Virus record (IMG/VR): IMGVR_UViG_3300017648_000001
Coordinates: 1 to 61,162 of that record
Strand: one strand, 5' to 3'
Length of the DNA stretch: 61,162 bases
From: a virus
Lineage: Duplodnaviria; Caudoviricetes
The notes beneath the pieces were generated by a model. That model was given only the letters and a program-made list of their open reading frames with translations. It searched no databases and was not told the DNA's origin. This document shows positions 16,685-58,825 of the stretch, in pieces (the first letter of the stretch is position 1; the number at the start of each line of letters is the position of its first letter). The position numbers were made by a program, and so were the translations under genes.

Positions 16685-17394
16685 TGCCGTTACCAGCGAA
16701 TAATTTACTTTTCGGATTTGAGCCGAAGTTAACGAAAGAGCAGCGAATTTATGTCGATAGCATTTTCGACAATCAACTTACGATAGTAAACGCTAGGTCA
16801 GGAACCGGTAAGACAACGTTAGCAGTAGCTTGCGCCAAGATAATCGGCAAGCCGTTAGTATACGTATTCTCTCCGGTTGAAGAAAAGAAGATGGGATTCC
16901 GTCCTGGTACGCAAGCCGAAAAGGAAAGTGAGTACTTAACACCGTTAAAGGATGCGTTACTAGAGATCGGAGAGGTTCCGGAGAAAGTCGTCTATAACGA
17001 AGAGAATGCGGAAGCGTTAAAGGCCGGTCACGTTTGGGTATACCCGATGAGCCATATATTCGCTCGTGGTATCAACTTGAAAGATAAAACGGTCATCCTT
17101 GCGGAAAGTCAGAATTATACGCGCGGTGACATGAAGAAAATCCTAACTAGAATCCACAATAATTGCACCGTTATTATCGAAGGTCACACGGGGCAATGCG
17201 ATTTACCAGACGAAAGTAAAAGCGGCCTAGCTCCATATATAGAACATTTTAGGAATGAACCGTATTGCGAAGTTATTGAACTAACCAAAAATTTCCGTGG
17301 AAGGCTTGCACAAATCGCTCGTGATTATAACGTATGCAAGGACACGATATATCAAATTAGACGAGGGGATACTTATTCCGATATTTCGATATAG
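16684..17394 (+). CDS. phoH: PhoH-family ATPase with an atypical C-terminal extension
   Basis: ARSGTGKT, MGFRPG, ARG, ESQN and GHTGQCD motifs. Confidence 0.9.
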   Translation: MPLPANNLLFGFEPKLTKEQRIYVDSIFDNQLTIVNARSGTGKTTLAVACAKIIGKPLVYVFSPVEEKKMGFRPGTQAEKESEYLTPLKDALLEIGEVPEKVVYNEENAEALKAGHVWVYPMSHIFARGINLKDKTVILAESQNYTRGDMKKILTRIHNNCTVIIEGHTGQCDLPDESKSGLAPYIEHFRNEPYCEVIELTKNFRGRLAQIARDYNVCKDTIYQIRRGDTYSDISI

Positions 17395-17421
17395 ATGGAA
17401 ATTGCGAAGGAGTGAAAAGGT

Positions 17422-17730
17422 ATGAGAAATCAGTTTTATTACGAATTTAAAGAACAGGATTATTACGCTCTAATTGCAGTGAATGTTGAGAAATACGATT
17501 TAAAAACAAAACCTCACAAAAAAGCTACTGAATTATACGTCGGGGTTGTAGCTGGTGAAAGTGTGGAAGAAGTGCTAGAAGAAGGCGATCCAATCCAAGT
17601 AACAAAAGAATATGCATTTATGAAGTTTATATACGCTCATGAGTATGAATCCCAAACTGTTAAGGAGTTAATAAAGCAATTTGAGGAATCCGAAAATGAA
17701 GTTTTACTTATAGATAGCGCATTGATTTAA
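17422..17730 (+). CDS. Hypothetical protein (AT-rich cassette A)
   Basis: CG-poor sequence flanked by the conserved 24-bp sites. Confidence 0.7.
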   Translation: MRNQFYYEFKEQDYYALIAVNVEKYDLKTKPHKKATELYVGVVAGESVEEVLEEGDPIQVTKEYAFMKFIYAHEYESQTVKELIKQFEESENEVLLIDSALI

Positions 17731-17780
17731 TTCGAAATTCAAGTAAATAGCGCAACACCGACGAAAGGAGGACGCCACCC

Positions 17781-20946: not shown

Positions 20947-21500
20947 TGACGGAAATTAAAATCGGTCTAACCGGCCGTCTTAGAAGCGGAAAGGATTCCG
21001 TCGCAGCCTACGCAAGCACCTTCTACGATTTCGCAACATATGCGTTCGGTGACGAATTGAAACGCGACTATCACGCGAAGAATCCGGATGTACCTCGTAC
21101 GCCGAAACCGAGAAAAGCGTATCAGGAACACGGACAGGCGGAGCGCTCCCGACGAGGCGACGACGTTTGGGTTGACGAGGTGTTCCGTACGATCGAATCA
21201 CACCGTTGGCCCGAGCGGATTATGATTACCGACGTAAGGCAGTCGAATGAGGTTGCGAGATTAAAGTCGGAGGGTTTCGTACTCATACGGATTACGGCTC
21301 CGGATCATGTCCGAATAGAAAGGGCGAAAGCTGCCGGAGATGCGTTTTCGGCGGAGGATTTGACGCATAGTACGGAGCTTGCCGTTGATGATTTCGAAGT
21401 AGATTTCGAGATTCATAACGATGGATCGCTCGTTGAGTTGTACGAAAAGTTTGATGCGGTGATGGCGGAATTGAATATTTCGAAGGAGGACGATATATGA
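20946..21500 (+). CDS. Deoxynucleoside monophosphate kinase
   Basis: GRLRSGKD P-loop; ITDVRQSNE and HSTE motifs. Confidence 0.85.
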   Translation: MTEIKIGLTGRLRSGKDSVAAYASTFYDFATYAFGDELKRDYHAKNPDVPRTPKPRKAYQEHGQAERSRRGDDVWVDEVFRTIESHRWPERIMITDVRQSNEVARLKSEGFVLIRITAPDHVRIERAKAAGDAFSAEDLTHSTELAVDDFEVDFEIHNDGSLVELYEKFDAVMAELNISKEDDI

Positions 21501-23356
21501 GCAACTTTAAATTCGTAGAATTATTCGCAGGCATCGGAGGGTTCCGTCAAGGACTCGACCAACTCGGAGGAGAATGCGTATTAGCTTCGGAGTGGGATAA
21601 ATTCGCTAAACAATCGTACACTATTCTTTACGGTGACGAACATCTTAACGATGACGTAACGAAAATTAACGAAAAAGACGTTCCTGACCACGACGTATTA
21701 GTATTCGGCATGCCTTGTCAAGCATTCTCGGTCGCAGGCAAGCGTTTAGGGTTCGAAGATATGCGCGGTACTTTATATTTCGAAGCTATGCGAATTGCTC
21801 GCGAAAAGAAACCGAAAGTATTGTGGATGGAAAACGTTAAGGGACTCGTAGGGCATGATTCCGGTAGGACGCTTAACGTAATGGCGCAAGCGATGTGCGA
21901 TATCGGCTACACGATAGATTTCGAAGTCCTAAATTCTAAATACTTCGGAGTTCCTCAGAATCGCGAGCGTATCTTCATGATTGGTATCCGTGACGATTTA
22001 ATCGAGCAGCAACCGTGGAAGATCGAAGGTACTAACGTAGTAGCGAAAGGTAAGCGTAGGATCTCCGAATTAGAGGGCGTTAAGACGTTTAACTTTGACT
22101 GGCCTGAACAAACGGAAGTAACGACGAGGTTGCGAGATATTTTAGAAACAAACGTAGACGAACGATATTACCTTAGCGAAGAGAAAACAGCGAAACTGGT
22201 GGCGCAGTTAGATCGCGAAAAGTACGATAAGGAAATTCCGGTGGTTATCGATCCTTCGCAACAGAAACGGGAGGGCAGAGCGAGAGTATACGTCGATGAA
22301 TCTCCGACAATTACGGCGAGGGATTACAAAGAACCGCGTATGATCGGCCACATCGATCTAAAAGGTCATGACGCAATCAAGCGCGTATATGATCCGTCCG
22401 CAATTTCGCCAACACTTACGACAATGGGCGGAGGACATCGTGAACCGAAGATAGCGGTACAAATGAATCGTAATGAAATCGGTAAGCAAACGGAAATCTC
22501 GCACTGCTTAATGGCGCGTGACTATAAAGGATTCGGCAATCAAGATATGACGGGGATAATCGAAGAAGTCCGACCAGTTTTAACGCCAGACCGTATCGAA
22601 AAGAGACAAAACGGACGTAGATTTAAAGAAGACGGAGAAGAATCGTTCACACTTACGGCACAGGATCGACATGGCGTGGCAGTCGGCACTAAGGAGGTTT
22701 TGTATGACGAGGAAAAGGAAAGAAACACCGTTGAAGTATTGCGAAAGCTGCGGGAAGAAGTTGGAGAGGAAGAGGTTGCCGAATGGAGATTTAGAGTACT
22801 TGATACACTTCAATCGTCGGAAGTATTGCAACAGAAACTGCATGTCGGAGTCATTCAAGGGCAGAGAATTGACGGACGATCCAAGTTGGTACACAGCCCA
22901 CAAACGAGCGAGATCAATAAAGAAAGCGGAAATGTGCGAGAAGTGTGGGTCGACAGAGAATGTGGATGTACACCACAAGGACGAGGACTGGAAGAACAAT
23001 TCGCTAGAGAATTTACAGTCATTATGCCGGAGTTGTCATATGAAAGAGCACAGACCGAAAAAGAGTTGCAAGATTTGTGGGAATCGACACAAGGGTCTGG
23101 GTTATTGCGAGAAGCATTATATAAGATTCAAGAAATATGGCGATCCGAATTACCTAAAACGAGGTACAGAATCAGAAAGTTAACGCCTAAAGAAACATTT
23201 AGACTCCAGGGCTTTCCCGATAGTGAGTTCGATAAGTTGGTCGAGGGTGGCATCTCGAATTCCCAACTTTATAAGCAAGCCGGTAACGCGGTAACGGTGA
23301 ATGTAATAAATGCGTTAGGCAGGCGTTTATTACCGTATTTAGGAGGCGATCAGTAA
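21497..23356 (+). CDS. C5-cytosine DNA methyltransferase with a large multi-TRD variable region
   Basis: LFAGIGG, PCQ, ENV, PQNRER, motif IX (RKLTPKETFRLQGF) and motif X (AGNAV). Confidence 0.95.
   Translation: MSNFKFVELFAGIGGFRQGLDQLGGECVLASEWDKFAKQSYTILYGDEHLNDDVTKINEKDVPDHDVLVFGMPCQAFSVAGKRLGFEDMRGTLYFEAMRIAREKKPKVLWMENVKGLVGHDSGRTLNVMAQAMCDIGYTIDFEVLNSKYFGVPQNRERIFMIGIRDDLIEQQPWKIEGTNVVAKGKRRISELEGVKTFNFDWPEQTEVTTRLRDILETNVDERYYLSEEKTAKLVAQLDREKYDKEIPVVIDPSQQKREGRARVYVDESPTITARDYKEPRMIGHIDLKGHDAIKRVYDPSAISPTLTTMGGGHREPKIAVQMNRNEIGKQTEISHCLMARDYKGFGNQDMTGIIEEVRPVLTPDRIEKRQNGRRFKEDGEESFTLTAQDRHGVAVGTKEVLYDEEKERNTVEVLRKLREEVGEEEVAEWRFRVLDTLQSSEVLQQKLHVGVIQGQRIDGRSKLVHSPQTSEINKESGNVREVWVDRECGCTPQGRGLEEQFAREFTVIMPELSYERAQTEKELQDLWESTQGSGLLREALYKIQEIWRSELPKTRYRIRKLTPKETFRLQGFPDSEFDKLVEGGISNSQLYKQAGNAVTVNVINALGRRLLPYLGGDQ
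22704..23183 (+). CDS. HNH/zinc-finger endonuclease nested in the +1 frame of the methyltransferase
   Basis: AAGGAGG (22691-22697) 6 nt before ATG; CEKC...DVHHKDEDWKNNSLENLQSLCRSCH HNH motif; additional CxxC motifs. Confidence 0.85.
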   Translation: MTRKRKETPLKYCESCGKKLERKRLPNGDLEYLIHFNRRKYCNRNCMSESFKGRELTDDPSWYTAHKRARSIKKAEMCEKCGSTENVDVHHKDEDWKNNSLENLQSLCRSCHMKEHRPKKSCKICGNRHKGLGYCEKHYIRFKKYGDPNYLKRGTESES

Positions 23357-26382: not shown

Positions 26383-26613
26383 CCCTACCATACTTTTACA
26401 CGTTTAGTTGGCTATACGTATAGAGAGCGTATATTTTCCTCGGTTGTACGGTCTATATAGTGGTGCCCCATGAAATTAACGATTTCGTATCTATGTATAC
26501 TATGAGCCCGTATAAAAACACCGTTTAGTTATCTATATATGTGAGGGAAGTTTTCGCTTCTCTTGCTACGTTTTTGATGAAAATTGCGACATAAACAAAA
26601 GGAGGAATTTGAA

Positions 26614-26988
26614 GTGAAAGAAGGACAATGGACACATAGTTATTATGATGAAATATTCCAAAGTGGTGCTTATTTTGAAACTAAAGAACAAGCTGTTGAA
26701 GATGGGAAGAAGGAGTATGGAGAAGATTACAAACATTTTTATGTTGGTCAAATAAAAGATGTTTCTTTTGCTTTAACACCTAATGTTGATAGTGTTTTAG
26801 AGGGTATAGCACAAAATGTTTATGATGAAGTTGGAGAAGTTTCGGAGGATTATTTGAATCATATTGAAAAGGAACATTATGAAGCACTTGAAGATGAATT
26901 AAATAAAGTTATTTCAGTTTGGATGGATAAATACGGATATAAACCAGAGTTTTTCAAAGTTGTAAATGTCGAAAAAGTTACTGCATAG
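26614..26988 (+). CDS. Hypothetical protein (AT-rich cassette B)
   Basis: AAAGGAGG RBS; GTG start; flanked by the 24-bp sites. Confidence 0.7.
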   Translation: MKEGQWTHSYYDEIFQSGAYFETKEQAVEDGKKEYGEDYKHFYVGQIKDVSFALTPNVDSVLEGIAQNVYDEVGEVSEDYLNHIEKEHYEALEDELNKVISVWMDKYGYKPEFFKVVNVEKVTA

Positions 26989-27073
26989 TTCAAGGAAATA
27001 ACGAAATAAACCGCGCTGAGAAATCGGCGTTTTTTTAATTTGTTAAAACATTTTCGAAAAAGGGGACGATAAA

Positions 27074-38749: not shown

Positions 38750-41025
38750 GCGGATTAAATATATCGTTTAAGATTAGCGCAATCGACGACTTCTCGAAAA
38801 CTATGTCGAAGCTTAATACCGATACGAAGAAAGCGTTCGATACAGTCGGAACAATTGGCGCAGGCATGACGGTAGCTGGCGCAGGGATAGCGGCCGGACT
38901 AGGCGTTGCGGTTAAGACTGCGGCTGACTTCGAAAGTGCAATGAGTCGAGTCGGAGCATTAAGCGGGGCAACCGATAAGGATCTATCGTCACTAACGCAG
39001 ACAGCGAAAGATCTCGGAGCGGCTACGTCGTTTAGCGCAAGCGAGGCAGCCGAAGGGATGTCGTATTTGGCGATGGCTGGATACAAAACGAACGACATAA
39101 TCGCAGCTATGCCCGGGCTTCTTAACGCGGCGGCGGCCGGACAAACGGATTTGGCGACTACTGCCGACATTACATCGAATATACTTTCGGGATTCGGATT
39201 AGAAGCGGCAGAGACAGCGAGAGTTGCCGACATACTAACGAAAACATTTACGTCAAGTAACGTTGATTTGCAGATGTTGGGCGAAAGTATGAAGTATGTT
39301 TCTCCGACAGCAAAAGCGATGGGATTGTCTATCGAAGAGGTATCTGCTGCGGTAGGACTTTTAGGTAATGCCGGTATACAAGGAAGCATGGCGGGTACGA
39401 GTTTATCGATGTCACTAACTCGATTAGCCTCGCCAACAAAAGAAGCTGCGGATCTAATGAAAGATCTCGGGTTTAACGCTTTCGACGCCGAAGGGCAAAT
39501 GCTTCCGTTAAATAAAATCATCGAAAATTTACAGAAGTCGACTGCAGACTTAACGGACGAACAGAAGATGCATGCGATTAGTACGATATTCGGTGCGGAG
39601 TCAATGAAATCGATGCTTACGTTAATGGAAGCCGGTCCCGAAGCATTATCCGCATTTACGAAGGAACTTGAAAATTCCGGAGGAACAGCGGAAGAAATTG
39701 CGAACAAACAACTTGACAATTTAAACGGGCAACTAACGATATTAAAGTCCGGACTAGAAGCGGCAGCAATATCGATAGGTACGGCATTATTACCGGTTAT
39801 TAAATTCCTAGCGGCGGGCATTCAAAGTCTAGTCGATTGGTTCAACGGACTAAGCGAACCGGTAAAAACGTCAATCGCTATCGTAGCTGCGTTAACTGCC
39901 GGATTTCTATTGCTAATGGGTCCGATACTAATACTCGTCGCTATTTTACCGTCAATTGTCGCCGGCTTTAGTTTTATCGCAGGGGCTGTCGGTCTAGCGT
40001 CATCGGCGTTACTTAGCATTATCGGAATAGTCGTGGCGGTAGTTGCAGCGCTAGTATTAATCGGAGTCGGACTCGTAGCTGCGTACAACAAAGTCGGATG
40101 GTTTCGCGATATGGTGAATTCGGCGTGGGCTTCAATAAAGTCAGCGTGGAATACGGCTCTAGTATTTATTAGCGGATTAGTGAAGACGATTATGACGGAA
40201 GTGTCGTCGTTCTTTGGCGCGCAGTTGGCGAAGATTCAAGCGTTCTGGAACGAAAATGGAGCGCTAATCATGAAATTCGTTAAATCGTTTATGAATACGG
40301 TAAAGACGGATATACAGGCGGGTATGCAGTTTATTAAAGGTATATTTCAAGTCGTATGGCCGATAATCTCCGGACTAGTTAAAATCGCTTGGGGTATCAT
40401 CAAAGCGGCAATCAATCACGGGTTAACCGTCGTACTAGGACTCGTCGAAGTTGCGATGAAAGTACTCGAAGGAGATTGGTCGGGCGCATGGGAATCGATA
40501 CAACAAATCGGAAAAGATATCTGGCATAACATCGAAGACTTCTTCCGTAATATCGACCTCGTTCAAATCGGCAAGGATATCATACAAGGCTTAATTAACG
40601 GTATCGGCTCGATGGCAGGCGCAATCACATCAAAAGTTAAATCGTTAGCATCGTTAGTTCCTGACGGCCTTAAAGATTTCCTTAATATACATTCGCCGTC
40701 GCGTTTAATTCGCGATCAAGTCGGACGCTTTATTCCGATGGGTCTAGCGGAAGGTATCGACGGAAGCCTCAACGTAGTTAAGAAGGCGGTAAGCGGAATG
40801 GCAGCGATGGCGGTTCCGGATGTGCCGAATCAATCTTACGCTAGTCAATCGATTGGTAACGGTCAGGCGCAATCGTCCGTTACGTATCACGAAAACACAC
40901 CGATAACGATTAACTATTACGGTAATGGATCGGAAGAAGATGCGCTAGGATTAGTCGATATTATTGACGGTGAATTGGCGAAACGTAAGCGACACGCGGC
41001 GCGTATAAGCGGGGTGAAAATTTAA
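38746..41025 (+). CDS. Tape measure protein
   Basis: TP901-family core FSASEAAEGMSYLAMAG; IHSPSR motif. Confidence 0.95.
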   Translation: MSGLNISFKISAIDDFSKTMSKLNTDTKKAFDTVGTIGAGMTVAGAGIAAGLGVAVKTAADFESAMSRVGALSGATDKDLSSLTQTAKDLGAATSFSASEAAEGMSYLAMAGYKTNDIIAAMPGLLNAAAAGQTDLATTADITSNILSGFGLEAAETARVADILTKTFTSSNVDLQMLGESMKYVSPTAKAMGLSIEEVSAAVGLLGNAGIQGSMAGTSLSMSLTRLASPTKEAADLMKDLGFNAFDAEGQMLPLNKIIENLQKSTADLTDEQKMHAISTIFGAESMKSMLTLMEAGPEALSAFTKELENSGGTAEEIANKQLDNLNGQLTILKSGLEAAAISIGTALLPVIKFLAAGIQSLVDWFNGLSEPVKTSIAIVAALTAGFLLLMGPILILVAILPSIVAGFSFIAGAVGLASSALLSIIGIVVAVVAALVLIGVGLVAAYNKVGWFRDMVNSAWASIKSAWNTALVFISGLVKTIMTEVSSFFGAQLAKIQAFWNENGALIMKFVKSFMNTVKTDIQAGMQFIKGIFQVVWPIISGLVKIAWGIIKAAINHGLTVVLGLVEVAMKVLEGDWSGAWESIQQIGKDIWHNIEDFFRNIDLVQIGKDIIQGLINGIGSMAGAITSKVKSLASLVPDGLKDFLNIHSPSRLIRDQVGRFIPMGLAEGIDGSLNVVKKAVSGMAAMAVPDVPNQSYASQSIGNGQAQSSVTYHENTPITINYYGNGSEEDALGLVDIIDGELAKRKRHAARISGVKI

Positions 41026-41843
41026 TGGACGTAACAATACAGCGCCTAAATGGCGCCTCTTTTATTTTCTCGGATTACGATATTAAAACGCTCGACCTCG
41101 TCGTTGATTCGCCCGAACCACGAACAGAAACGGAGACAATCGAAGGAGCGGACGGATACGAGGATCTCGGTACAACTTACGGAGGTAGAACGTTACGAGG
41201 CGAGTTCATGCTTAAAGCGGCAGATACTGCGGATTATCCGTTGCTCCGTAACGAAGTCTTTCGCATACTTGATTCGCGCGAGGCGTTTTATTTAATCGAC
41301 AGTCGCGAGCCTGGCAAACGTTGGCTTGTTAAAGTTGCGTCGAAATACTCACACGAACAAATTCGGATATTCGGTCGGTTCGAAGTCGAATTTCAGTCGG
41401 CTAGCGCTTATTCCGAATCGATTAATACGACGATGACTCCGTTCGAACTAACGGATTATCCGTGGCAAATCGGTCAAGGACTTATCGACGCGGACGATCT
41501 CGTTTATAAACATTCGACGACAACGTTTCGGATATATAACGCCGGCGACGTGGCGGTAAATCCTCGGCGATATCCATTAACGATTAAATATACGGGCGCG
41601 TCTACGAATCTACAAATTAAAAACCTTACGACGTTAGATACGTGGAGCTACACCGGAGCGACGACGGCTAGCGATTCGTTAGAGCTCCGACGGACGCGTT
41701 CGTTAAAGAATGGCGTTGTAAATATCTTCGGCGATACCAATCGGAAACTGATAACGTTGGCGCCCGGATGGAATGACTTCGAATTGGTCGGCGTGAGTGG
41801 GACGTATGAGGTATCGTTTGATTTTCGATTCTATTACTTATAA
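41025..41843 (+). CDS. Distal tail protein (Dit)
   Basis: Follows the tape measure gene; LAPGWN and FRFYYL motifs. Confidence 0.85.
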   Translation: MDVTIQRLNGASFIFSDYDIKTLDLVVDSPEPRTETETIEGADGYEDLGTTYGGRTLRGEFMLKAADTADYPLLRNEVFRILDSREAFYLIDSREPGKRWLVKVASKYSHEQIRIFGRFEVEFQSASAYSESINTTMTPFELTDYPWQIGQGLIDADDLVYKHSTTTFRIYNAGDVAVNPRRYPLTIKYTGASTNLQIKNLTTLDTWSYTGATTASDSLELRRTRSLKNGVVNIFGDTNRKLITLAPGWNDFELVGVSGTYEVSFDFRFYYL

Positions 41844-41860: not shown

Positions 41861-43951
41861 ATGGCGGATTATAAACCGGTAGGCGTACCGTTTGACCGTA
41901 CGTTTAGAAATACAATTAACGAAAACTTCGGAATATTAGACAATGCAGTAAATACGCAAAAGACGAGGGTTGACGATTTGATTGCGGGAACGGAACAACC
42001 GTCCGAAGTCGTGGATGCTCGTGGAGGGGCGCCAGTTTTACGTGATCGATTAGACGGCGTTGATGCGCAGTTGGCAGAAAAAGCGCCAAAGGAAAAAACT
42101 GAAAGTATCATAACTCCCGAAGAATTCGGGGCAAAAGGTGATGCTGTAACAGATGATACACAGGCATTTAAAGAATTAGCTTCCTATCTCCTGACAAATA
42201 ATACTGAAGTCCATTGGAAACCTACTGCAAAGTATGTATTAACAGAACCACTTTATTTTAAAAGTGGACTTCGCATGTATGGGCATGGTGCAGAAATTAT
42301 ATGGAGAGGTACACCGACTTTTGATAATTCAAGTCGATCAGTAGGTATCTTCAATGTAAATGGGGATGTTGAACAATCCAATAAATATGACGTAACCGCC
42401 ATTAATTTACAAGGAAATTTGGTGAACAACGAGTCTCACACTCTTCCGTATTATGGTTCAATAACTGTCCCTAACCATCCATATCAAGTTGGTGACTACA
42501 TTGTTATGGAGCTAGATACAGGCACACAAAATTCATTAGAACTAAAACCAAGAGATCATAAATTAGTAAAGATTGTTCGTGTTGAAGGTGACATTCTCTA
42601 TGTCGATTACACTAGTCCATACACTTTGAATATTAGTCAAATGACAAGCCCTAAAGTTTATAAGGCAACCCCTGCCGAAAACATCGTTTTAGATAATATC
42701 TTTATCAATGATGAAAGAGTTATCACAGAACCCAAAGATTGGATAAATTCCCACCCTAATGTAAGTGAGTTTATGAGTGGGGTTGTTTTAAGGTATTGCC
42801 GAAATGTAACAATCAACAAAGTTAAAGGTTATAATACTAAATTTCCCGTCTTTTATGTTATGTTGTGTTCACATTTACGATTCCAGGATGGGTATTTAGA
42901 TAAACCAGCAATTGTCGGACCCGGTGAAGGGTATTATACGCAGTTTAATAATTCACGTGATATTATCGTTGAAAATATTCAAGGTGAAAATACTAGACAT
43001 ATCGTTGATTTTACTGCTTCATCGAATGCTATTATTAAGAAATCCAAAGGTAATAAAAGTTACGGGATTGATTTTCAATCTCATGGTAACTATGAACACA
43101 ATATTGTATATGAAGATTGTATAGGTACTTGGAACTTTGCAAGTGGTGAATCTTTTGGAAATGCTGTTCGTGATTATAGTCTTATTAGATGTAAGGGTAT
43201 GTTGTTAGGTAAATACTCAAAAAATATCACTATTAAAGATTCTGAGTTTACTCTGAATAATCCTCTAACTAGCTTAAAAGCTGAAAACAGTTTAATTCAT
43301 TGGTATCTATCTTCCGGAACATATGAGGCTGATCCTAGAAGTGTGAAAAATGATCGTGTTATTCATTTCAAAAACTGTAACGTTAAAGTGTATAGTTCAA
43401 CATTCGCTAGCGCTATTATCAGTTACCATGACATTACGATTGAAGGCGGTCAACTAATTGATCTAAAGAAAGAAACTGAGAATTATAGAGGTGGATTTCT
43501 AATCGATCTTAGAGATGTTGATAAGTTCACAGTCATTAATTGCTCATTAGTTGATAATATTAGATTTAGGATTAATACATCCTCGGTCGATATTGATTTT
43601 GCGTTCGATAAAAATCACATGATATGTCATGGAGAATACTATCACTTTACAGCAAAGACAACATCAAACATGGCGATAAGAGCGAAAATAACAAATAATA
43701 CATTTATAAATGGTAAAACTGATGGAACGAGAATGCAATTACACAGATTACCTTCTAATGATGATCAAACGAACACGCAATCCATTGTATTGTTTAAAGA
43801 TAATATTGTTAAACAAGGAACGATTTTAGCACAAGTAACGAGTACAAAAGATGTTTACATTTCTCGTGACAATACGTTAATTGATTGTTCAGTTACTGTT
43901 GATTCGGGTATTTCTAAAATTGTTAACACTGATATCATTGTACCTGCATAA
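41861..43951 (+). CDS. Receptor-binding tailspike with a beta-helix (pectate-lyase-like) domain
   Basis: EVVDARG N-terminal anchor; FGAKGDAVTDDTQAF motif; AT-rich C-terminal cassette. Confidence 0.85.
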   Translation: MADYKPVGVPFDRTFRNTINENFGILDNAVNTQKTRVDDLIAGTEQPSEVVDARGGAPVLRDRLDGVDAQLAEKAPKEKTESIITPEEFGAKGDAVTDDTQAFKELASYLLTNNTEVHWKPTAKYVLTEPLYFKSGLRMYGHGAEIIWRGTPTFDNSSRSVGIFNVNGDVEQSNKYDVTAINLQGNLVNNESHTLPYYGSITVPNHPYQVGDYIVMELDTGTQNSLELKPRDHKLVKIVRVEGDILYVDYTSPYTLNISQMTSPKVYKATPAENIVLDNIFINDERVITEPKDWINSHPNVSEFMSGVVLRYCRNVTINKVKGYNTKFPVFYVMLCSHLRFQDGYLDKPAIVGPGEGYYTQFNNSRDIIVENIQGENTRHIVDFTASSNAIIKKSKGNKSYGIDFQSHGNYEHNIVYEDCIGTWNFASGESFGNAVRDYSLIRCKGMLLGKYSKNITIKDSEFTLNNPLTSLKAENSLIHWYLSSGTYEADPRSVKNDRVIHFKNCNVKVYSSTFASAIISYHDITIEGGQLIDLKKETENYRGGFLIDLRDVDKFTVINCSLVDNIRFRINTSSVDIDFAFDKNHMICHGEYYHFTAKTTSNMAIRAKITNNTFINGKTDGTRMQLHRLPSNDDQTNTQSIVLFKDNIVKQGTILAQVTSTKDVYISRDNTLIDCSVTVDSGISKIVNTDIIVPA

Positions 43952-44063
43952 AGTTGTATTTTGTAACTACTCATACTGTACAATTGGAGAAAATTCCGAA
44001 GTAACTAACGGAGCCCCTCGCGGCTCTTTTTTCGCATACAATTCTCGAAAGGAGGCGGTCACT

Positions 44064-45944
44064 ATCGCTGACCTAACGATAACAAATCTCGTAGGCGAAT
44101 CGGAGCTACTCGTCGGCTACGCGAAAGATAGTCTCGCCATTAAATCGGCAGTGAACGGTGATCGTTCGCTGTCTTTTTTATTGCCGAAAAGTGGCGTCAA
44201 CGAGCATGCTTTCGATTTAGTCGAAGAGGAATCCGTCATCGAATACGACGGTCATTCCTATCGCATTAAAAACGTAACCGAACGCGTCGTCCGATCAACG
44301 CCAGTCAAGGCGGTAACGGCACCGCACGTATTCTTCGATATCGTTGACGATTTCCGTTACGACACGCTAACGACCGGATTCAAGTCAATCGCGCAAGTCT
44401 TATCGTTCATATTCAACGGAACCGATTGGAGCTTTTCTGTAATTGATTCGTTTGACACGGTAGAATTCGAAAACTTCGGCAACGCGAACTGTCTCGACTT
44501 ATTTTCGAAGGTTCTCGAACGGTACGGCGCAGAATTCGACCTTAGCGGAAATAACGTTATCATACGCAATAAAATCGGCTCGCTCATCGACTTACAATTT
44601 CGCTATAATCACAACGTTAAAACGTTGAATCGTACGGTCGACACTTCGAATCTTTCAACGTATATAAAAGGAACGGGTAAGCAGCGCGAGGACGGAAGCT
44701 ATTACGTCGAGGCGGAATATACGTCGCCGAACGCATCCATTTTCGGAATCAAGCATGCGCCACCATACTCTAACGAATCGATTACGCATCTTGCGACATT
44801 GGAACGAAATCTACAACGCGCCATCCAAGATACACCAGAAGTATCGATCGAACTAGAATTCGTCGTATTAAAGGACGCAGGCTATACGAAACCGAAGCCG
44901 TCACTTGGCGACGTGGTGCCGACGATATATGAACCGTTGAAGGATCTCGACCTCGACCTTCGCGTAATGGAAATCGAAGAATATCCGGAAAGCAATAAAG
45001 CGCCAAAAGTCGTTCTAGCTACGTCGAAGTTAACGTTGGCGGACGCGGACTTTTCGTACCAGAAAGCGTTACTCGATAAGATATACGATGCTAATAGCGG
45101 GCGATTACGATATAACGTTTACGATGAAGCCGTGAAACGAGCGACCGAGGCGTTAAATAATTCGTTAACGGAACTCGAATATCCAGTCGGAATGGGAATT
45201 ATCGCAAGAGATCCGAACGACCCTAACCGATTCGTAGCGTTGCGGTCGAGCGGACTCGGCATCACAACTAACGGAGGGCTAACGTTTGATGAAGCTATAA
45301 CGGTTCTCGGCGTAAATACTTCGTTACTGACTGCCGGACAAATTAAAACGAACAACATTCAGATTATCGGAAACGATGATCTTTTTTATTGGGACGGAAA
45401 TTATCTCATCGCTATTAACGCAGCCGATCCGAATAAATTCGTTCGTCTAAACAGCGACGGGCTATATGTCGCAAAGGGAGCGCTCACTGTTGAACGCCCT
45501 GACGGATTTAAAACGATCATCGACGGTTATTCGAACTTTAACGTAAATGTAGAATCGGCTGACCCTCCGTTTCGAAGTAATAACTTAACGCAAGTCGGAC
45601 GTTTCTGCGCTACGACAAGCACCGTTAAGGAAGATTTCAATCTTTACTCATTCCGTCATGAGGCGCGTTATTTAAAACTCGACTTAGCGCATTACGTAGA
45701 TACAAATGATTTCGGAGCATATGGAGAAATAATCGTCGACTTATTGGACGCAGGAAATACGAATCTATTTACGGCTTCTTTTATTAACGGAATTGGCGGA
45801 GAGCAAGCATCGTTAGGTCGCGTGTATACCGTTGATCTAGGCGTTCCGACAGGTAACGCGATGAGTATATACTTGCGCTTGCGCTCTAGCTCGGATCTAA
45901 AAAACGTATATCTCCGTAAGAGACGTATTTGGTTGGAGGGATGA
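44064..45944 (+). CDS. Tail endopeptidase/Tal-like baseplate protein (probable ATC start)
   Basis: FRYNHNVK and TYIKGTGK motifs; AAAGGAGG 8 nt before in-frame ATC; upstream terminator at 44010-44032. Confidence 0.8.
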   Translation: MADLTITNLVGESELLVGYAKDSLAIKSAVNGDRSLSFLLPKSGVNEHAFDLVEEESVIEYDGHSYRIKNVTERVVRSTPVKAVTAPHVFFDIVDDFRYDTLTTGFKSIAQVLSFIFNGTDWSFSVIDSFDTVEFENFGNANCLDLFSKVLERYGAEFDLSGNNVIIRNKIGSLIDLQFRYNHNVKTLNRTVDTSNLSTYIKGTGKQREDGSYYVEAEYTSPNASIFGIKHAPPYSNESITHLATLERNLQRAIQDTPEVSIELEFVVLKDAGYTKPKPSLGDVVPTIYEPLKDLDLDLRVMEIEEYPESNKAPKVVLATSKLTLADADFSYQKALLDKIYDANSGRLRYNVYDEAVKRATEALNNSLTELEYPVGMGIIARDPNDPNRFVALRSSGLGITTNGGLTFDEAITVLGVNTSLLTAGQIKTNNIQIIGNDDLFYWDGNYLIAINAADPNKFVRLNSDGLYVAKGALTVERPDGFKTIIDGYSNFNVNVESADPPFRSNNLTQVGRFCATTSTVKEDFNLYSFRHEARYLKLDLAHYVDTNDFGAYGEIIVDLLDAGNTNLFTASFINGIGGEQASLGRVYTVDLGVPTGNAMSIYLRLRSSSDLKNVYLRKRRIWLEG

Positions 45945-48925: not shown

Positions 48926-48936
48926 AGGTGGTACGT

Positions 48937-49755
48937 ATGGCACGAAAAATACTCGGCATTGACGCCGGCAACTATGAAACGAAAGTAGCGGTCGAAGGTT
49001 CCGTCTATAAGTTTCGAAGTTTGCTCGGTGAATGGCGCGAAAGGAATTTGAAGTCAACGTTCGGTGACGATATGGAGTACGTTTACGAGGGAAGGCGCGG
49101 TCTAGCCGGCGATATCGTTCAGTATGAATGCGACTTTATCCGTCAGAGATTCGGTGACACTAAAGCGCACGAGGACGCTAAGATTCGGATCTTGCTCGCG
49201 GTACACAAATACGGAAGCGACGTGAATGACATCGTCGTAGGACAGCCGATTAAATCTCATACGCCAGCGCAGAAAGAAGTGATTAAGACGATGCTACAAG
49301 GCGCTCATACGCTTACGGTGAACGACGTAGAGAAGACGTTTACTATTCGGAATATCGAAGTAGCTGCGGAGGGTGCCGTCGCTTATTGGGCGTATGAAGG
49401 GCTTGAGCAAGCGTTGCGTTTTATCGATATCGGCAGCGGAACGATTAACTTCGCATCCGTTCATAAAGGGCGCTTCGTCGACCGTGATTCCTTTACGGTA
49501 AGCTACGGAGTAGAGAGCGCAAGGACACGCGATTATACCGGTTTAGCGAGCGCCATTATCGCCGAATCATCTAAACGTTGGAAGGCGGACGATGTCGTCA
49601 GAGTATGCGGAGGAGTGGCCGAAGAACTAACGATTAGGCTAGCCGAATATTACGAAAATGTCGAAGTAATAAAGCCGTGGGATTTGGCGCCAGTTTATAC
49701 GAATGCTATCGGCTGTTACGAGTTAGCGAGGGTTTTATATGAGTCGCGTAAGTAA
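48937..49755 (+). CDS. ParM/StbA actin-like ATPase
   Basis: GIDAGNYETK, AEG, IDIGSGTIN, CGG and NAIG actin-fold motifs. Confidence 0.9.
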   Translation: MARKILGIDAGNYETKVAVEGSVYKFRSLLGEWRERNLKSTFGDDMEYVYEGRRGLAGDIVQYECDFIRQRFGDTKAHEDAKIRILLAVHKYGSDVNDIVVGQPIKSHTPAQKEVIKTMLQGAHTLTVNDVEKTFTIRNIEVAAEGAVAYWAYEGLEQALRFIDIGSGTINFASVHKGRFVDRDSFTVSYGVESARTRDYTGLASAIIAESSKRWKADDVVRVCGGVAEELTIRLAEYYENVEVIKPWDLAPVYTNAIGCYELARVLYESRK

Positions 49756-49948
49756 AGGCGTAAGTTTTAACGTTTCCGACGCATATGAGGCGAGACTATT
49801 CGAATACGCAATGACGCAAGGGGCGTTCAGTAAGTTAGTCAAGCGATTGATTGCGAAGGAGATGGAAGGCGGACAGGTGGCGGTTAAGCGTCCGGTTGTT
49901 GAGGATAGCGTGGCGCGTCCGATGGATGACGTAAGCAGCTTCGTTTGA
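49739..49948 (+). CDS. ParR-like ribbon-helix-helix adaptor
   Basis: VSFN...FSKLVKRLI; coupled to ParM. Confidence 0.65.
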   Translation: MSRVSKGVSFNVSDAYEARLFEYAMTQGAFSKLVKRLIAKEMEGGQVAVKRPVVEDSVARPMDDVSSFV

Positions 49949-50098
49949 ATTTGCTTTCTCATTCCGTTCCATTCCATTCTTTCGCTCTAAATAAAACCTT
50001 AGTCGCTTTCTTATTCGTATTGTCCACGCTGAATTACTTTAGTTACGGATACTTTAGTTTTTATTTTAGTTACTACTAACGTTAAGGAGACGATATTT

Positions 50099-50326
50099 AT
50101 GTTTAATTTACCGCCAGTTAGCCTGTTCGATTTATCACCGTCAATGACGATCGGATACGTTTTAGTCGCCGGAGTTGGAATCGTATGTATCAGCGCTAGT
50201 TTCTTAGAGCGCAAGCTGTTCGGAGGATCTCACGCTTACATCTTCGAATGGATTGACCGCCTACTTAAAATCGGATTGCCTGTCGCATATATCACGATCG
50301 TATGGCGTCTATTTAGCGGTCTGTGA
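50099..50326 (+). CDS. Small two-TM membrane protein
   Basis: Hydrophobic segments; AAGGAG RBS. Confidence 0.7.
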   Translation: MFNLPPVSLFDLSPSMTIGYVLVAGVGIVCISASFLERKLFGGSHAYIFEWIDRLLKIGLPVAYITIVWRLFSGL

Positions 50327-50335
50327 GGCGTTGAA

Positions 50336-51529
50336 ATGCTAACGGGTATAAAACGATTACTAACGAAATCGAACGCTCGTACGACGCTAATAAGCGCCTT
50401 TAATGCAGGCGGAATCTATCTATCGATGAAGAATAGCGGAGGCAAGGAAATACGACGATATCCGAAGATACATTCGGTTGAGCCTGGCGAAGAGTCTACG
50501 CGCTTTGTGTTTACGTTGCCGAACGGATTTGATCCGAAAGAGGTAGCGAAAAGGGAGTACGCCTTTAAGCAAGTGTTCGGTCGGTTTATCGAATTGAAAG
50601 GCGACTTGAAGCGTTACGTGCTGACGGTTTATAAGTCCGGAATGCCGACCGAATTTAAGTATCGTTACGACGAAATTAAGGAGGCGATAAGTCAGTCGAA
50701 GTTGCCGATCGTCTGCGGTAAAGATAGAAACGGTCAGCTCGTCGTTTATGACATGCGAGATATTCCGCATTTATTAATCGGAGGGGCGACCGGCTCGGGT
50801 AAATCGACTCAGTTGCGCCAACTATTAACGACGTTGATAATCGCTTTACCTCCGAAAAAACTCGAACTATATTTAGCGGATTTAAAGAAAGCGGAGTTTC
50901 ATATATTCCGTAATGTTGAGCACGTAAAGTCTAACGTAACTCTTACACGCCACGTCGAATCTATGCTCGATTATATTAGCGAAGAAATGGATCGACGAAG
51001 CGACCTTCTCGACGTATTTGGCGTAGCTCATATCGACGACTTGCCGACAGAACAACGTAAACCTTACATCGTTTGCTGTATCGATGAGTTCGTAATGTTA
51101 CGGAAGAATCAAGCGGTCATGGCGAAATTAATCGAACTCACTGCGCTAGGTCGTGCGCTTGGAATATTCGTAATATTATCGATGCAGCGACCGGTTAAAG
51201 ACGTTCTCGATACGACGATTCGTTCGAATCTTAATGTCGCAATGGGATTCCGCGTAAGGGACGCTATCGAGTCGCGCGTACTTAATACGCCAGGCTCCGA
51301 GAAGATTGACGTTCCTGGCCGATTCTATATGGATACGAACGGAATCATGTCGGAGGTACAGTCGCCGTTACTTAGCGTTGAGGAAGCGAAAAGGCTACTC
51401 GAACCGTTTAGAGTTGCGCCAACCGAGGCGAAAGATATTACGGAGATTACGAAAGGACCGGAATTAATAGAAGAAACGCCAATCTTCGGTCAATGGGAAA
51501 CGGAGGACGATAATAATGAAGAAACGTGA
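50336..51529 (+). CDS. FtsK/SpoIIIE-family ATPase
   Basis: PHLLIGGATGSGKS, CIDEF, GRALG and MQRP motifs. Confidence 0.93.
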   Translation: MLTGIKRLLTKSNARTTLISAFNAGGIYLSMKNSGGKEIRRYPKIHSVEPGEESTRFVFTLPNGFDPKEVAKREYAFKQVFGRFIELKGDLKRYVLTVYKSGMPTEFKYRYDEIKEAISQSKLPIVCGKDRNGQLVVYDMRDIPHLLIGGATGSGKSTQLRQLLTTLIIALPPKKLELYLADLKKAEFHIFRNVEHVKSNVTLTRHVESMLDYISEEMDRRSDLLDVFGVAHIDDLPTEQRKPYIVCCIDEFVMLRKNQAVMAKLIELTALGRALGIFVILSMQRPVKDVLDTTIRSNLNVAMGFRVRDAIESRVLNTPGSEKIDVPGRFYMDTNGIMSEVQSPLLSVEEAKRLLEPFRVAPTEAKDITEITKGPELIEETPIFGQWETEDDNNEET

Positions 51530-52130
51530 TCGAGCGATTATCGAAACGCTAGAATTATTTCGTGCGATGTCACGCGATCAGATAGCGGAATTATTTTACG
51601 GAAATTTAAAGAGTCCGACAACGAACGCCAACTTTGCGCTTAAACGTTTAAGGGACCGAGGTTATATAGAAGCGAATACCGAACGCCAACCTTACGTATA
51701 CTTTCCGAAGCCTGCTCGCATAAAGCAAGACGGACAGAAGGTCGACCACTTTCTAAAGATAGCGGACTTCTATCTGCAGCTTAAACGGGCAGGTGGCGCC
51801 ATTAAGTTTATCCACGTCGAACCGCAGTATATTGACGGAAAGATTCGGCCCGACATCTGCGTCATGTGGCAAGGCTCCGTATTCTTCGTCGAAATACAAA
51901 ACTCGCATTATACGCATAAAGTTATGGCGGAAAAGTTTCGGAGGTATCAGGCGTTCTATGATTCGGGCGAGTGGCGGGGGTTGCCGTTTCAAACAAAAAG
52001 CGCTCCGTTCCCTTTCGTATGGGTTGTCGCCGACCATAAGTATAAGATCGACGTAAAAGGATTCCGAGTGTTTCAATCGAAGGATGTGGCGGATTTATTA
52101 CGTCAGGTAGGAGCGAAAACTGGCGCTTGA
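51516..52130 (+). CDS. Replication-relaxation family protein
   Basis: wHTH followed by DHFL...RPD...FFVEIQ; canonical FtsK neighbour. Confidence 0.8.
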   Translation: MKKRDRAIIETLELFRAMSRDQIAELFYGNLKSPTTNANFALKRLRDRGYIEANTERQPYVYFPKPARIKQDGQKVDHFLKIADFYLQLKRAGGAIKFIHVEPQYIDGKIRPDICVMWQGSVFFVEIQNSHYTHKVMAEKFRRYQAFYDSGEWRGLPFQTKSAPFPFVWVVADHKYKIDVKGFRVFQSKDVADLLRQVGAKTGA

Positions 52131-52689: not shown

Positions 52690-54237
52690 TTAAATTCTCG
52701 GATACAGTTGTATGACAAACTGGTCGCGTTTGGTCCATTCTTTTCGTCTGAGATATGTCGCCTTATCTAATACAGCTTTCAACAATCGATTCTTACTTTC
52801 GATATCTGCGAGATCATATTCGCTAATAACCGTTTGCAATTGAGGCAGTAATTCATTAACGCTATTTTGGCGAATCTCTTCTTTTTGAATCTCACTTGAA
52901 ATATTTTTAATTTCATCTTTTAATCCGTTGATGCGGTTTGTTAAATTCTGCTGGCGTTCTAAAAACGTATCTACATCGTAAACTCCTCGTTCAAGCAAAT
53001 CATGTAAATTGCTTTTCTGTTCTTCTAATTTTTCTACCTCTTCTTCCTTATTTTCAATTACCTTTTTCTTATATTGCGAATCGTCCCCGTTATTTAATAC
53101 TGGAGCTTCCGTCATAATTTCGAGTTCTGCAGCAAACTGCTTTAGTCCGTCGATAACACGCTGTTCAACTAAATTCAAAGCTGACCCTTTTTGCACGCCT
53201 TTACATCCTGGATTGTTACAGCGAATGACGTCGTTAGGACGATCTGGTCGAGGTTGATAAAGCATAGAATAACCGCATACTTCACACTTCAAGACACCGG
53301 CTAGCGGATTCGATAACGTTTTATCAGTGACGGTAGAATGGCGCCATCGCCCGGAGTGCGCTCGATTTGCGGCATCGAATAGTTCGCGTGACACAATCGG
53401 ATCGTGTGCGCCTTCTTTTATCGTCCATTTGTCGCGTGGCATTTTCTTTTTGGTATACTTCCCGTCTCTTTTCGAATAACGGACTTGTCCCCAAATGATG
53501 TTACCGATATAAACTTCGTTTTTAATAATTGACGTAATACTGCTCGGTGCCCAATTTTTACGTTTATTATTAGGAGGTTTTACGCCTAGACGGTCGAGTT
53601 CATTTGCGACGGCTTGTCTTCCGTGTCCGTCTCGCATCATTTCGAACATTTTCTTTACGACCCACGCGGTTTCTGGATCGGGGTATAGCCGTAAGTTTTC
53701 ATCACGTAAATATCCGTATGGCGGTTTTTTACTTATCGACTTACCTTCGCCTGCAGATGCGGCCCGACCTCGTTGCATACGGCGAGTTATTGCCTTTAAT
53801 TCTTCGCGTGCAACTAACGACTTAATTCCGAAGACCAACTCCCACGTTTCTGATTCCGGATCATATACTTCGGTAGGAGTTAGTATTTTTGCGCCTGAGT
53901 ACCGGAAAGCGCGATCGAGGAGTCCTTGATCGAGCATATCGCCACGTCCGAGACGATCGAGGTCCATTACAAGCACACCGTCTACGTTATTAACTTCTAT
54001 ATCTCGGAGCATCGCTTGTATTTCCGGACGTTCCGATATAGACTCTCCGGACACAACCTCTTCGTATATGTTTGCGATATTATGATTCTCTTTTTTAGCT
54101 ACCGCGAAAAGTGTGCGACGATGGCGATCGAGTGTGTCGTAAGTTTCTCCGTTTTCGCTCGCTTTCTTTTCTTCTTCAAGGTCTTTTCGACTTTTACGTA
54201 AATATATATTAATAGTAAGACCGTTAGGACGGCTCAT
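52690..54237 (-). CDS. Large serine recombinase (integrase)
   Basis: YLRKS catalytic Ser, DRLGR, PPYGY, zinc ribbon CEVC...CKG, coiled coil. Confidence 0.96.
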   Translation of the reverse strand: MSRPNGLTINIYLRKSRKDLEEEKKASENGETYDTLDRHRRTLFAVAKKENHNIANIYEEVVSGESISERPEIQAMLRDIEVNNVDGVLVMDLDRLGRGDMLDQGLLDRAFRYSGAKILTPTEVYDPESETWELVFGIKSLVAREELKAITRRMQRGRAASAGEGKSISKKPPYGYLRDENLRLYPDPETAWVVKKMFEMMRDGHGRQAVANELDRLGVKPPNNKRKNWAPSSITSIIKNEVYIGNIIWGQVRYSKRDGKYTKKKMPRDKWTIKEGAHDPIVSRELFDAANRAHSGRWRHSTVTDKTLSNPLAGVLKCEVCGYSMLYQPRPDRPNDVIRCNNPGCKGVQKGSALNLVEQRVIDGLKQFAAELEIMTEAPVLNNGDDSQYKKKVIENKEEEVEKLEEQKSNLHDLLERGVYDVDTFLERQQNLTNRINGLKDEIKNISSEIQKEEIRQNSVNELLPQLQTVISEYDLADIESKNRLLKAVLDKATYLRRKEWTKRDQFVIQLYPRI

Positions 54238-54299
54238 GTACAATCACCTCTACACGAATTATAACCGACTATACACAAAAATGTAAATTCGTTATTCTT

Positions 54300-54324
54300 G
54301 TCCGAAAATACAAGTCCTTGCGTC
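54300..54324 (+). promoter_or_regulatory. Phage-sigma promoter motif (copy 3)
   Basis: GTCCGAAA-N11-TGCGTC. Confidence 0.7.
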
Positions 54325-54347
54325 AATCTAAGTGAGGAGTGATTAAC

Positions 54348-54530: not shown

Positions 54531-54572
54531 GCGACGTTATTTTTTTTTTTGCGAAAAAGTTCTTACGAAAGT

Positions 54573-54597
54573 GTCCGAAATTACGAAGTGATGCGTC
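54573..54597 (+). promoter_or_regulatory. Phage-sigma promoter motif (copy 4)
   Basis: GTCCGAAA-N11-TGCGTC. Confidence 0.7.
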
Positions 54598-54642
54598 CTA
54601 ATAAGTGTAAGGCGAAAATCACTCGGAAAGGAGCGTAATAGA

Positions 54643-55655: not shown

Positions 55656-56072
55656 ATGACGAGTAAAACGAAAGCTAGCGACTGGCGCAACCGTCCGATC
55701 GACGAATGGAATGTCGCCACCTTTACCGCCTATCTAACCGAACGCCACCTCGAAGTCTACGGAACGGAATATCTTCCGCCTGGACGAAACTGGCGCATGG
55801 AGCAAGGACTTATCGGCAACCTCATCGGCACTCGCGGAAAAACCCCTAAGCCGCGTAAATACGAGCCGGCGGTGGTCAAGGCGTTTATCGACGAATGTTT
55901 TCGAATCCATCGCACGAGTCCGCAGTATCCTACCGTAAATTTTACGTGGCTGTACAAATGGAAGACGGACGTGTGGGCGAGAGTTGTGGCGGAGGAACAA
56001 GCGAAGGCGAGGCGGTCAGAAGCCGTCGAATCGGTCGGTATGTCAGCGGAAGAGTTGAGCGATTGGTTATAG
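55656..56072 (+). CDS. Hypothetical replication-associated protein
   Basis: AAAGGAG RBS; lies between origin and loader. Confidence 0.7.
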   Translation: MTSKTKASDWRNRPIDEWNVATFTAYLTERHLEVYGTEYLPPGRNWRMEQGLIGNLIGTRGKTPKPRKYEPAVVKAFIDECFRIHRTSPQYPTVNFTWLYKWKTDVWARVVAEEQAKARRSEAVESVGMSAEELSDWL

Positions 56073-56113
56073 ACGTGGTAGACAAAAAAGCGAAGTAAAG
56101 GAGATGTGTAAAA

Positions 56114-56428
56114 ATGGACGATAAAAAACGTTTGAAAGAGATTAAAGAGTCATATTCAAATTGTATTGATATGGCTTTATCAGATGGTGAAACTTTACCA
56201 AGCTACGACATAGAGGTTGCTGATTTGAATTACCTTATTCAACAAGCAGAAAAACTAGAACAGCTAAAGGAAGTTATAGCTAGAAATTTAACTGCTTGGG
56301 ATACATCTAAAGATAAATCACAAGGGTTACTTCCAGAAGTATATTACGCAAATAAAATCTGGTACAAACGTTTAACTGGCGAGGCTTATGTTTTCGGTAA
56401 AGCAGTTAAAAAGTTCAATATAGAATAA
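56114..56428 (+). CDS. Hypothetical protein (AT-rich cassette D)
   Basis: RBS; composition; flanking sites. Confidence 0.65.
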   Translation: MDDKKRLKEIKESYSNCIDMALSDGETLPSYDIEVADLNYLIQQAEKLEQLKEVIARNLTAWDTSKDKSQGLLPEVYYANKIWYKRLTGEAYVFGKAVKKFNIE

Positions 56429-56475
56429 TTCGCTTTTCGCTAATATAACGAAATAAAACCGAAAGGAGTTTTCGA

Positions 56476-57683: not shown

Positions 57684-58315
57684 CTAATAACAACGAAAAC
57701 GAAGACGAACGCATCATCGACGAAATTATCGAAGTCGACTTGCCTGCCACATTTGGCGACATCTGCGAAGTCGAAGGTTATGGCGTTAGAGTATTCCGCG
57801 TCTTCGGCTATCGTATCGAAAATTGTTTTACGGAGGAGCGCGCATGGGTCGACGTAGTTTACGAACTGATCGACGCGGTGAATGGCGAGTGGCTTGAAGC
57901 GGACGCAGATGACGTTGAACTATTGGCGGACGCTGAAGATGCCGACGTTTATATGCAGACGATAGATTACGATAATTATCCGAAGTCGTTTATGGAGACG
58001 GTGGGCTGGGGAACGGCTATAAATAACGAAGGGGAGGCGTTAGGAATGGCGAAAAAGGGCGAGGGCGAACGTAAACCAACAGCGAGGGAGTTAAGCGCGA
58101 AGTTGGCGGAGGAGCGGAAGAAGGCGAGGAAGGAGCGGAAAGAAAAGATAGATAACGAGTTGGACCGTTATAACTTCTTTAAGCGACAGTTTGATAGAAC
58201 GCAAGACAGACGTGATAAGGAAGCGATGGATACGGTAATGGCGGAGATTAAAAAATTGCGTAACGATGTAACCTATTCGGAGAGTAACGATAAAGATAGC
58301 GATGATAATAAATAA
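57680..58315 (+). CDS. Hypothetical protein
   Basis: GGAGG RBS; long ORF. Confidence 0.7.
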   Translation: MTNNNENEDERIIDEIIEVDLPATFGDICEVEGYGVRVFRVFGYRIENCFTEERAWVDVVYELIDAVNGEWLEADADDVELLADAEDADVYMQTIDYDNYPKSFMETVGWGTAINNEGEALGMAKKGEGERKPTARELSAKLAEERKKARKERKEKIDNELDRYNFFKRQFDRTQDRRDKEAMDTVMAEIKKLRNDVTYSESNDKDSDDNK

Positions 58316-58345
58316 TTGATACAAATAGCGACATAAAAGGAGAGG

Positions 58346-58777
58346 TTGAACTTGGAATATAACGAGGTTTATAAAGACTTATTTACAGTCGATAAAGAGT
58401 ATTTCCTTGCACATTGTATTAGTGCAGATGCAAAGATGGGTGCAGGGATAGCAGTTGAATTTAGAAAGAGATTTAAACTAGGTCAATTTCAAAAAGAGGT
58501 TGAGAAAACAGGGTTGATAGTTGGTAGTTGTGCAATGGTTGGAAGAGTGCTAAACCTTGTAACTAAAAGGGTTTATTGGGGTAAACCTACTTACGAAACA
58601 TTCACTAAAGCAGTCGAGGATATGAAAAGATTAGCTGTTAAACACGATATAAAAAAGATTGCTATGCCACAAATAGGTGCAGGGTTGGATAAATTAAGTT
58701 GGGCGAAAAATCGAGAAATCATTAAAGAAATTTTTTCAGATACAGATATAGAAATTCTTGTTTGTAGATTTAAGTAA
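58346..58777 (+). CDS. Macrodomain protein, TARG1/DarG-like ADP-ribosyl hydrolase (cassette E)
   Basis: LAHCISADAKMGAGIA, NLVTK and MPQIGAGLD motifs. Confidence 0.88.
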   Translation: MNLEYNEVYKDLFTVDKEYFLAHCISADAKMGAGIAVEFRKRFKLGQFQKEVEKTGLIVGSCAMVGRVLNLVTKRVYWGKPTYETFTKAVEDMKRLAVKHDIKKIAMPQIGAGLDKLSWAKNREIIKEIFSDTDIEILVCRFK

Positions 58778-58825
58778 CTGTGTCGCAGTTCGCATAAATT
58801 ACGAAATTAAAAGGAGGTTGAACGC

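Follow-up and report, generated by a model that had tools for sequence, protein, structure and literature searches.

In a temperate Bacillaceae siphophage from soil, direct copies of a single degenerate 30-bp dyad flank the passenger part of a tailspike gene and at least three accessory genes. On balance, a tyrosine-type recombinase, which the host or some other mobile element would provide, probably acts on these sites and likely exchanges the DNA that they enclose between phage genomes. Our verdict is that the site-flanked tailspike cassette is a variation on known site-specific cassette systems.

The window, which is the whole stretch of 61,162 nucleotides that was analysed, is one complete phage genome (classed as complete, with a 123-nt terminal repeat), encoding AimR, a serine integrase, a DNA polymerase, a ribonucleotide reductase and a siphophage tail module. 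CpG is unusually frequent across the backbone, so foreign stretches are conspicuous. An arbitrium-type module (951-2280), consisting of an AimR-family receptor followed by a short peptide ORF, is CpG-poor and has no cassette sites. An HNH endonuclease ORF (22671-23183) lies in another frame inside the open frame of a C5 DNA methyltransferase (21497-23356), and a partition-like protein, an FtsK/SpoIIIE ATPase and a replication-relaxation protein are encoded consecutively between the lysis genes and the integrase (48928-52130), the latter two being found also in phage phi18-2. A second repeated intergenic motif (families D7 and D11; 16401-16467, 54300-54336 and 54543-54609) is probably a phage promoter or operator; one copy of this type, at 54573, scores on the first site matrix.

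The tail locus and its paired sites

The tail gene is located between the genes of the distal tail protein and a Tal-like protein, and comprises the following features:

41025-41843, plus strand: distal tail protein (Dit; PHROG 33, PF05709), conserved upstream flank
41861-43951, plus strand: tail side-fibre/tailspike-like gene, 696 aa, anchor plus in-frame passenger
41861-42072, plus strand: anchor, approximately residues 1-71, CpG-rich like the backbone, similar to the 191-aa chain of 9J1L
42061-42090, plus strand: left site, in frame, with 12-bp arms and a spacer (42073-42078) of the GGC-start class
42079-43951, plus strand: passenger, CpG-poor, predicted right-handed beta-helix tailspike-like domain (PF12708 below cut-off; structure models)
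43974-44003, plus strand: right site, non-coding, with a spacer (43986-43991) of the GGA-start class
44010-44032, plus strand: hairpin and T run resembling a terminator, immediately beyond the right site (read from the sequence; alignment)
44064-45944, plus strand: Tal-like tail endopeptidase gene (PHROG 326, PF06605), conserved downstream flank

The anchor matches the 191-aa chain of a monocin side-fibre structure (PDB 9J1L, E 1.3e-6), which includes a coiled-coil rod bound to the distal tail protein (PMC11830787). The passenger is a predicted beta-helix, Atlas models resembling phage-tail beta-helix clusters (TM 0.79), and weak matches to PF12708 and to PDB tailspikes fall near residues 80-180; the passenger would presumably have receptor-binding and depolymerase activity. 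Both closest relatives retain the terminator-like hairpin. At the start of the Tal gene (44051-44066), ATC comes after a strong ribosome-binding site, as in the relatives L018 and G342; more distant relatives have TTG at this position, and ATC is likely a non-canonical start codon.

The first-pass annotation had proposed that the receptor-binding domain is a cassette bounded by two motifs, one at 42064, where the gene switches from CG-rich to AT-rich DNA, and one at 43977, after the stop codon. Both motifs are present there: 42065-42085 encodes AQLAEKA (residues 69-75 of the ORF 41861-43951), and the second motif starts 23-26 nt past the stop codon of the tail gene. The change in composition is borne out by maximum likelihood, which places CpG change-points at 42066 and 43996, inside the motifs. 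The Dit gene and anchor have a GC content of 0.48 and 122 CpG/kb, the DNA between the motifs 0.34 and 25 CpG/kb, and the gene after the right motif 0.46 and 114 CpG/kb.

The left and right copies are identical at 15 of 30 positions, and a mismatch search for the pair gave two matches in 8 of 100 shuffles, which is not convincing alone; exact repeat finding did not place the site family among the 20 largest repeat families. Because the motif pair was weak by itself, the flanks of other CpG-poor genes were read, and an arms-only matrix was built from eight accessory-gene flanks, hand-picked from CpG-poor genes and aligned by eye. With the resulting symmetric model, the held-out left site came 7th among 61,139 positions, outscoring all others that had not been used for training, and the held-out right site came 19th, in agreement with the earlier claim that both motifs match the motif flanking other cassettes. 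In leave-one-out analysis seven of the eight training sites survived (ranks 4-15); the site at 56080 failed (rank >1100) and was excluded from later matrices.

Across 42 sites from the window and its relatives, the motif is a degenerate 30-bp dyad of 12-bp arms around a 6-bp spacer, with a single best axis among 17 offsets for 24 non-coding sites, for the 12 right sites alone and for the 18 left sites alone. The arms match about equally in either orientation; the spacers match at 3.3 of 6 positions in direct and 1.5 of 6 in inverted orientation. Spacers fall into classes by position: GGC within tail genes and GGA after them, GAT before accessory genes and C after them. The spacers indicate that the upstream and downstream sites are in direct orientation, and the two sites differ in spacer class. 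The first three spacer bases are common to like-position sites, bases 4-5 vary within a class (identity 0.24-0.6), and left sites of different phages are only about 17/30 identical. An attC-like hairpin model was rejected after a fold test on seven single strands, none of which folded beyond shuffles (z -1.1 to +1.1); the sites are thus putative double-stranded protein-binding sites rather than attC.

Accessory cassettes and the range of the site

Four accessory loci of the window carry the dyad:

17382-17757, plus strand: cassette after phoH, with spacers 17394-17399 and 17740-17745 and a 102-aa gene (17422-17730)
26564-27008, plus strand: cassette with a CpG-poor gene ending at 26988 and spacers 26576-26581 and 26991-26996
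56068-56455, plus strand: accessory gene (56114-56428), its right site strong (spacer 56438-56443) and its left site poor (spacer 56080-56085)
58306-58808, plus strand: cassette before the helicase gene, with spacers 58318-58323 and 58791-58796 and a Macro-domain gene (58346-58777)

After phoH, matching sites in the closest relative (L098) enclose a different gene; before the helicase gene, the closest relative (L096) carries other genes in a three-site array, and homology resumes at 58796. At the 56.1-kb locus, the closest relative has ordinary CpG-rich genes and no sites. L098 also has an insertion of approximately 870 bp, possibly an intron, in the gene of the ribonucleotide reductase large subunit (L098:497-1368, compared with 14401-14408 of the window).

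The site extends to other contexts. In G083, sites occur at gene ends in an unrelated low-GC region (five matches versus 0.1 in shuffled sequence, two of the five having guided the choice of region), including a three-site array of small genes like that of L096; gene ends in G230 carry sites as well. A further 340 kb of regions, chosen for holding a site match or a small recombinase, gave 14 matches versus 0.1, two of them probably coding. Lone sites are present at gene ends in L136 and L139. In L033 (7450-8345), two GGA-class sites enclose an opposite-strand 197-aa gene directly behind the tail cassette, and in L185 (1501-1530; G002) a regulator gene and a dehydrogenase-like gene are separated by a lone strong site, in a region where phage genes are not evident. 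None of the nine tail loci mapped has an empty tail site or tandem spare passengers.

The site is not universal among related phages. The first matrix gave 18 matches versus 12 in shuffled sequence over 1.78 Mb of helicase and ThyX relatives, and the second gave 16 distinct held-out matches over 2.45 Mb. Scans with a strict pattern found one locus in one set, none in 201 genomes and a site in 1 of 251 genomes; the same approach in viral sequences returned nine loci, of which two were known relatives and seven apparently chance. The anchor search gave matches in 3 of 91 genomes, a DNA search of isolated phages found zero relatives of the tail locus, and the first 50 kb of phi18-2 contains no site.

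Breakpoints and constraint in relatives

Among 56 anchor-sharing proteins, the named ones being from Neobacillus, Bacillus, Metabacillus and Priestia, L/M/V71 and A/S72 are kept in 50, and identity collapses past residues 72-75. The 57 passengers fall into 50 clusters, including beta-helix, SGNH, deacetylase and BNR families. At the DNA level, the matches of four distinct relatives to the window stop at 42080-42091, and the homology of the closest relative (L018) begins again at 43984. The viral contigs L018 and G342, which have the same dataset number in their names, are identical over 123 nt, which are contig ends, through spacer base 4, and then continue into unrelated passengers; both close with a GGA-class right site, share only a 45-nt right flank, differ at spacer base 5 on both sides, and are only 76-78% alike in the genes further down. 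Outside the sites, L012 and L013 have 94-96% identity; between the sites they do not align. In one pair the left break follows spacer base 4; in another it is in the right arm, two bases in. The bracketed unit can also take in further genes behind the tail gene (L018, L010). The closest homolog of the passenger (P0058, 57%) has a similar anchor end joined without the motif. Contigs of two runs containing the same DNA showed no alternative join, and 2464 breakpoints among related phages, most of them without the site, showed no enrichment at sites (3.9% versus 3.3%).

The proposal that domains are swapped onto a constant anchor of about 70 residues is supported as to the defined site of joining but not as to the anchor: anchors of approximately 20 to 250 residues and of several unrelated types (about 20 in L024, 195 in G230 and 250 in L004) end at this site in one codon phase, and the site is absent from 10 of 31 loci with the anchor type of the window.

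These 31 loci are the 41 anchor loci less 10 duplicates (the window's own record included); the peptide motif is present in 21 of them, three probably false matches being retained. The site leucine is encoded by TTG at 16 of 20 loci, compared with 12 of 44 other anchor leucine codons (P 1.1e-4), and the third base four codons on is G in 16 of 21 versus 118 of 508 codons, whatever the residue (P 8.5e-7), although these P values and the one below overstate independence because the loci are related. Downstream of the gene, a matrix trained on accessory sites and blind to the spacer and to tail genes was used to scan the 19 motif loci with a complete gene. The top match within 1.5 kb after the stop codon has a GGA spacer at 11 of the 19, in five cases at exactly stop+1, versus none of 10 motif-less loci (10 of 18 versus 0 of 10 without the window, P 0.004); a clear right site is lacking at 8 of the 19. 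The expectation that identity ends within the motif and that its synonymous positions are conserved is thus upheld: breakpoints cluster there, synonymous positions are constrained and a non-coding downstream copy is conserved, so neither scattered breakpoints nor conservation at the amino-acid level only describes the locus.

A model of cassette exchange, its alternatives and known systems

The layout of a tyrosine-recombinase core site, with arms in imperfect dyad around a 6-bp centre, is present. In the model that we favour, two recombinase subunits would bind the arms and strand exchange would occur within the spacer, the first bases of which would have to match. If so, the left site of one phage would pair with the left site of another and right with right, and such pairing of like with like would lead to replacement through a double crossover. 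Self-deletion of a cassette would be limited by the difference between its two spacers. Because the left site is in a fixed codon phase at the predicted end of the fibre rod, incoming passengers would be fused in frame. The outcome would be a new tip binding or degrading surface polymers, and so presumably an altered host range. The variation of spacer bases 4-5 exceeds what strict overlap homology would allow.

The enzyme would be encoded elsewhere. The only site-specific recombinase detected in the phage is the following, which is probably not the enzyme for the dyad sites:

52690-54243, minus strand: large serine integrase

No tyrosine recombinase was found in the complete phage genome, and a scan of 39 tyrosine-recombinase loci (score at least 14) revealed no adjoining site that would mark a cognate enzyme; the only matches there were a tail-cassette site near a prophage integrase and a weak in-gene match. 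Small tyrosine-recombinase genes (183-194 aa) occur in several Bacillaceae phages (L097:985-1536, L178, L182 and L183), and phi18-2 (within its first 50 kb) and G339 have a small one besides a full-length one. As candidates for the enzyme, the recombinases of approximately 185 aa are unsupported: in G339, G343, G346 and phi18-2 they have no adjacent site, and they were not found in the window, G337, G338, G340 or G341, several of which are partial.

Relaxed homologous recombination by phage annealing proteins or RecA, with the motifs as conserved linkers and no site-specific enzyme, is an unlikely explanation. It would be in keeping with the failure to find a cognate recombinase, with the first three spacer bases shared by like-position sites, and with the precedent of coliphage tailspike motifs (PMC10408124), but the low identity of left sites from different phages suits it poorly; homology has no need of a dyad, a fixed 6-bp spacing or reuse of the motif at unrelated loci, and breakpoints fall in the spacer despite longer homology in the flanking genes. 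The same sites and type of enzyme might instead operate in the manner of an integron, a cassette circle being excised and inserted at a single resident site, with replacement as insertion plus loss. The three-site arrays, the lone gene-end sites and the additional gene enclosed behind the tail cassette of L033 fit such a scheme, which is nevertheless unlikely given the systematic difference between left and right spacers within cassettes, the lack of empty tail sites or spare passengers in the nine mapped tail loci, and the base-5 differences on both sides of the L018/G342 pair, which a single fixed crossover leaves unexplained.

Two further readings were weighed. A palindromic and degenerate sequence that often follows a stop codon and precedes a ribosome-binding site could be the operator of a dimeric regulator of acquired genes, its position at boundaries being a by-product; this is very unlikely, for the motif is also found within tail genes, 200 nt from their start, where it is in frame and keeps to a single codon phase, its spacer class follows position and homology breaks inside the spacer. 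That constraint on the protein where a coiled-coil rod ends, combined with chance, produced the motif while swaps were selected at a domain boundary seems highly improbable: the resemblance of the anchor to the side-fibre chain, the bases fixed by Leu-Ala and the motif-less junction of P0058 speak for it, but it is largely refuted by the synonymous bias, the residue-independent third-base bias and the conserved non-coding partners, and the same motif is present at the non-coding flanks of accessory genes.

The cassette-exchange model has counterparts among described systems. The Rin shufflon of Bifidobacterium prophages has a predicted tyrosine recombinase, and a second locus has no adjacent recombinase (PMC6109161). 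Like the phage tail gene, it combines a constant N-terminus with one site inside a receptor-binding gene and a directly oriented one just after the 3' end; as described, its sites are identical, asymmetric and 11 bp long, it carries inverted spare tips and a neighbouring invertase, and it acts by inversion within one genome (PMC6109161). Here, in contrast, the sites are degenerate 30-bp dyads with unlike spacers, there is no recombinase, passengers have approximately 400-800 residues and the site is also found at accessory genes. The tail locus has a site inside the gene and one right after it, but neither spare inverted tips (the next gene is Tal) nor an adjacent invertase, and the best minus-strand score is 11.5, versus 21-35 for the nine plus-strand sites.

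The coliphage tailspike motifs of Pas et al. 2023 (44/95 nt and 20 nt, the 20-nt one being predicted to act as a terminator) are separate motifs of lytic Gram-negative phages, read there as homology hotspots, whereas both ends here belong to one dyad family with the geometry of a recombinase site (PMC10408124). Tail fibres of Bacillus subtilis V4 phages follow the same pattern of a conserved start (the first ~50 residues) and a remainder replaced by unrelated domains, in an account that describes no DNA site and does not use the word motif (PMC10674732). The T-rich/6 bp/A-rich polarity of the dyads is shared with Tn916-type targets, which is a lead only (PMC12084037). The dyad sites would work like those of a shufflon or an integron, yet belong to neither.

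Plasmid pdif modules are an analogue. The dif sites consist of 11-bp half-sites around a 6-bp exchange region, likewise an imperfect dyad around a 6-bp centre (PMC5357621), and there are precedents for mobile elements that exploit the host Xer enzyme and for exchange with partial homology of the centre (PMC5357621, PMC3599477). The bases flanking the centre are T before and A after in the dyad sites, opposite to the two Ureaplasma dif-like sequences compared (PMC3599477). Unlike dif, the dyad is present at many sites per genome, one class of which is inside a reading frame. Small genes arranged in a row, each with a site directly behind its stop codon, recall integrons and phage attC clusters (PMC9892861), and arrays of small cassettes separated by sites are present in L096 and G083; unlike integrons, these sites have neither hairpin folding nor an integron integrase, no IntI being found in the phage. 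The phage integron/attC paper mentions neither Bacillus nor Firmicutes (PMC9892861). No account of this site family was found in the largely open-access literature covered.

It is possible, if short of probable, that Bacillaceae phages share an undescribed cassette-exchange network with one site family, a recombinase acting in trans and a spacer code that directs each module to its slot, either an in-frame tail tip or a free-standing accessory gene; if this is true, phages that are not related to one another can join dozens of enzyme domains in frame to any fibre anchor. The usual account of phage mosaicism and of tailspike swapping is illegitimate or short-homology recombination followed by selection. 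A defined 30-bp site with recombinase geometry would explain both how receptor-binding domains are exchanged in frame and where accessory genes are placed in phages of Gram-positive bacteria. If confirmed, it would supply a mechanism for the old question of phage mosaicism, a sequence tag with which genomes could be mined for modules of both kinds, receptor-binding and accessory, and perhaps a new recombinase that is unusually tolerant of site degeneracy.
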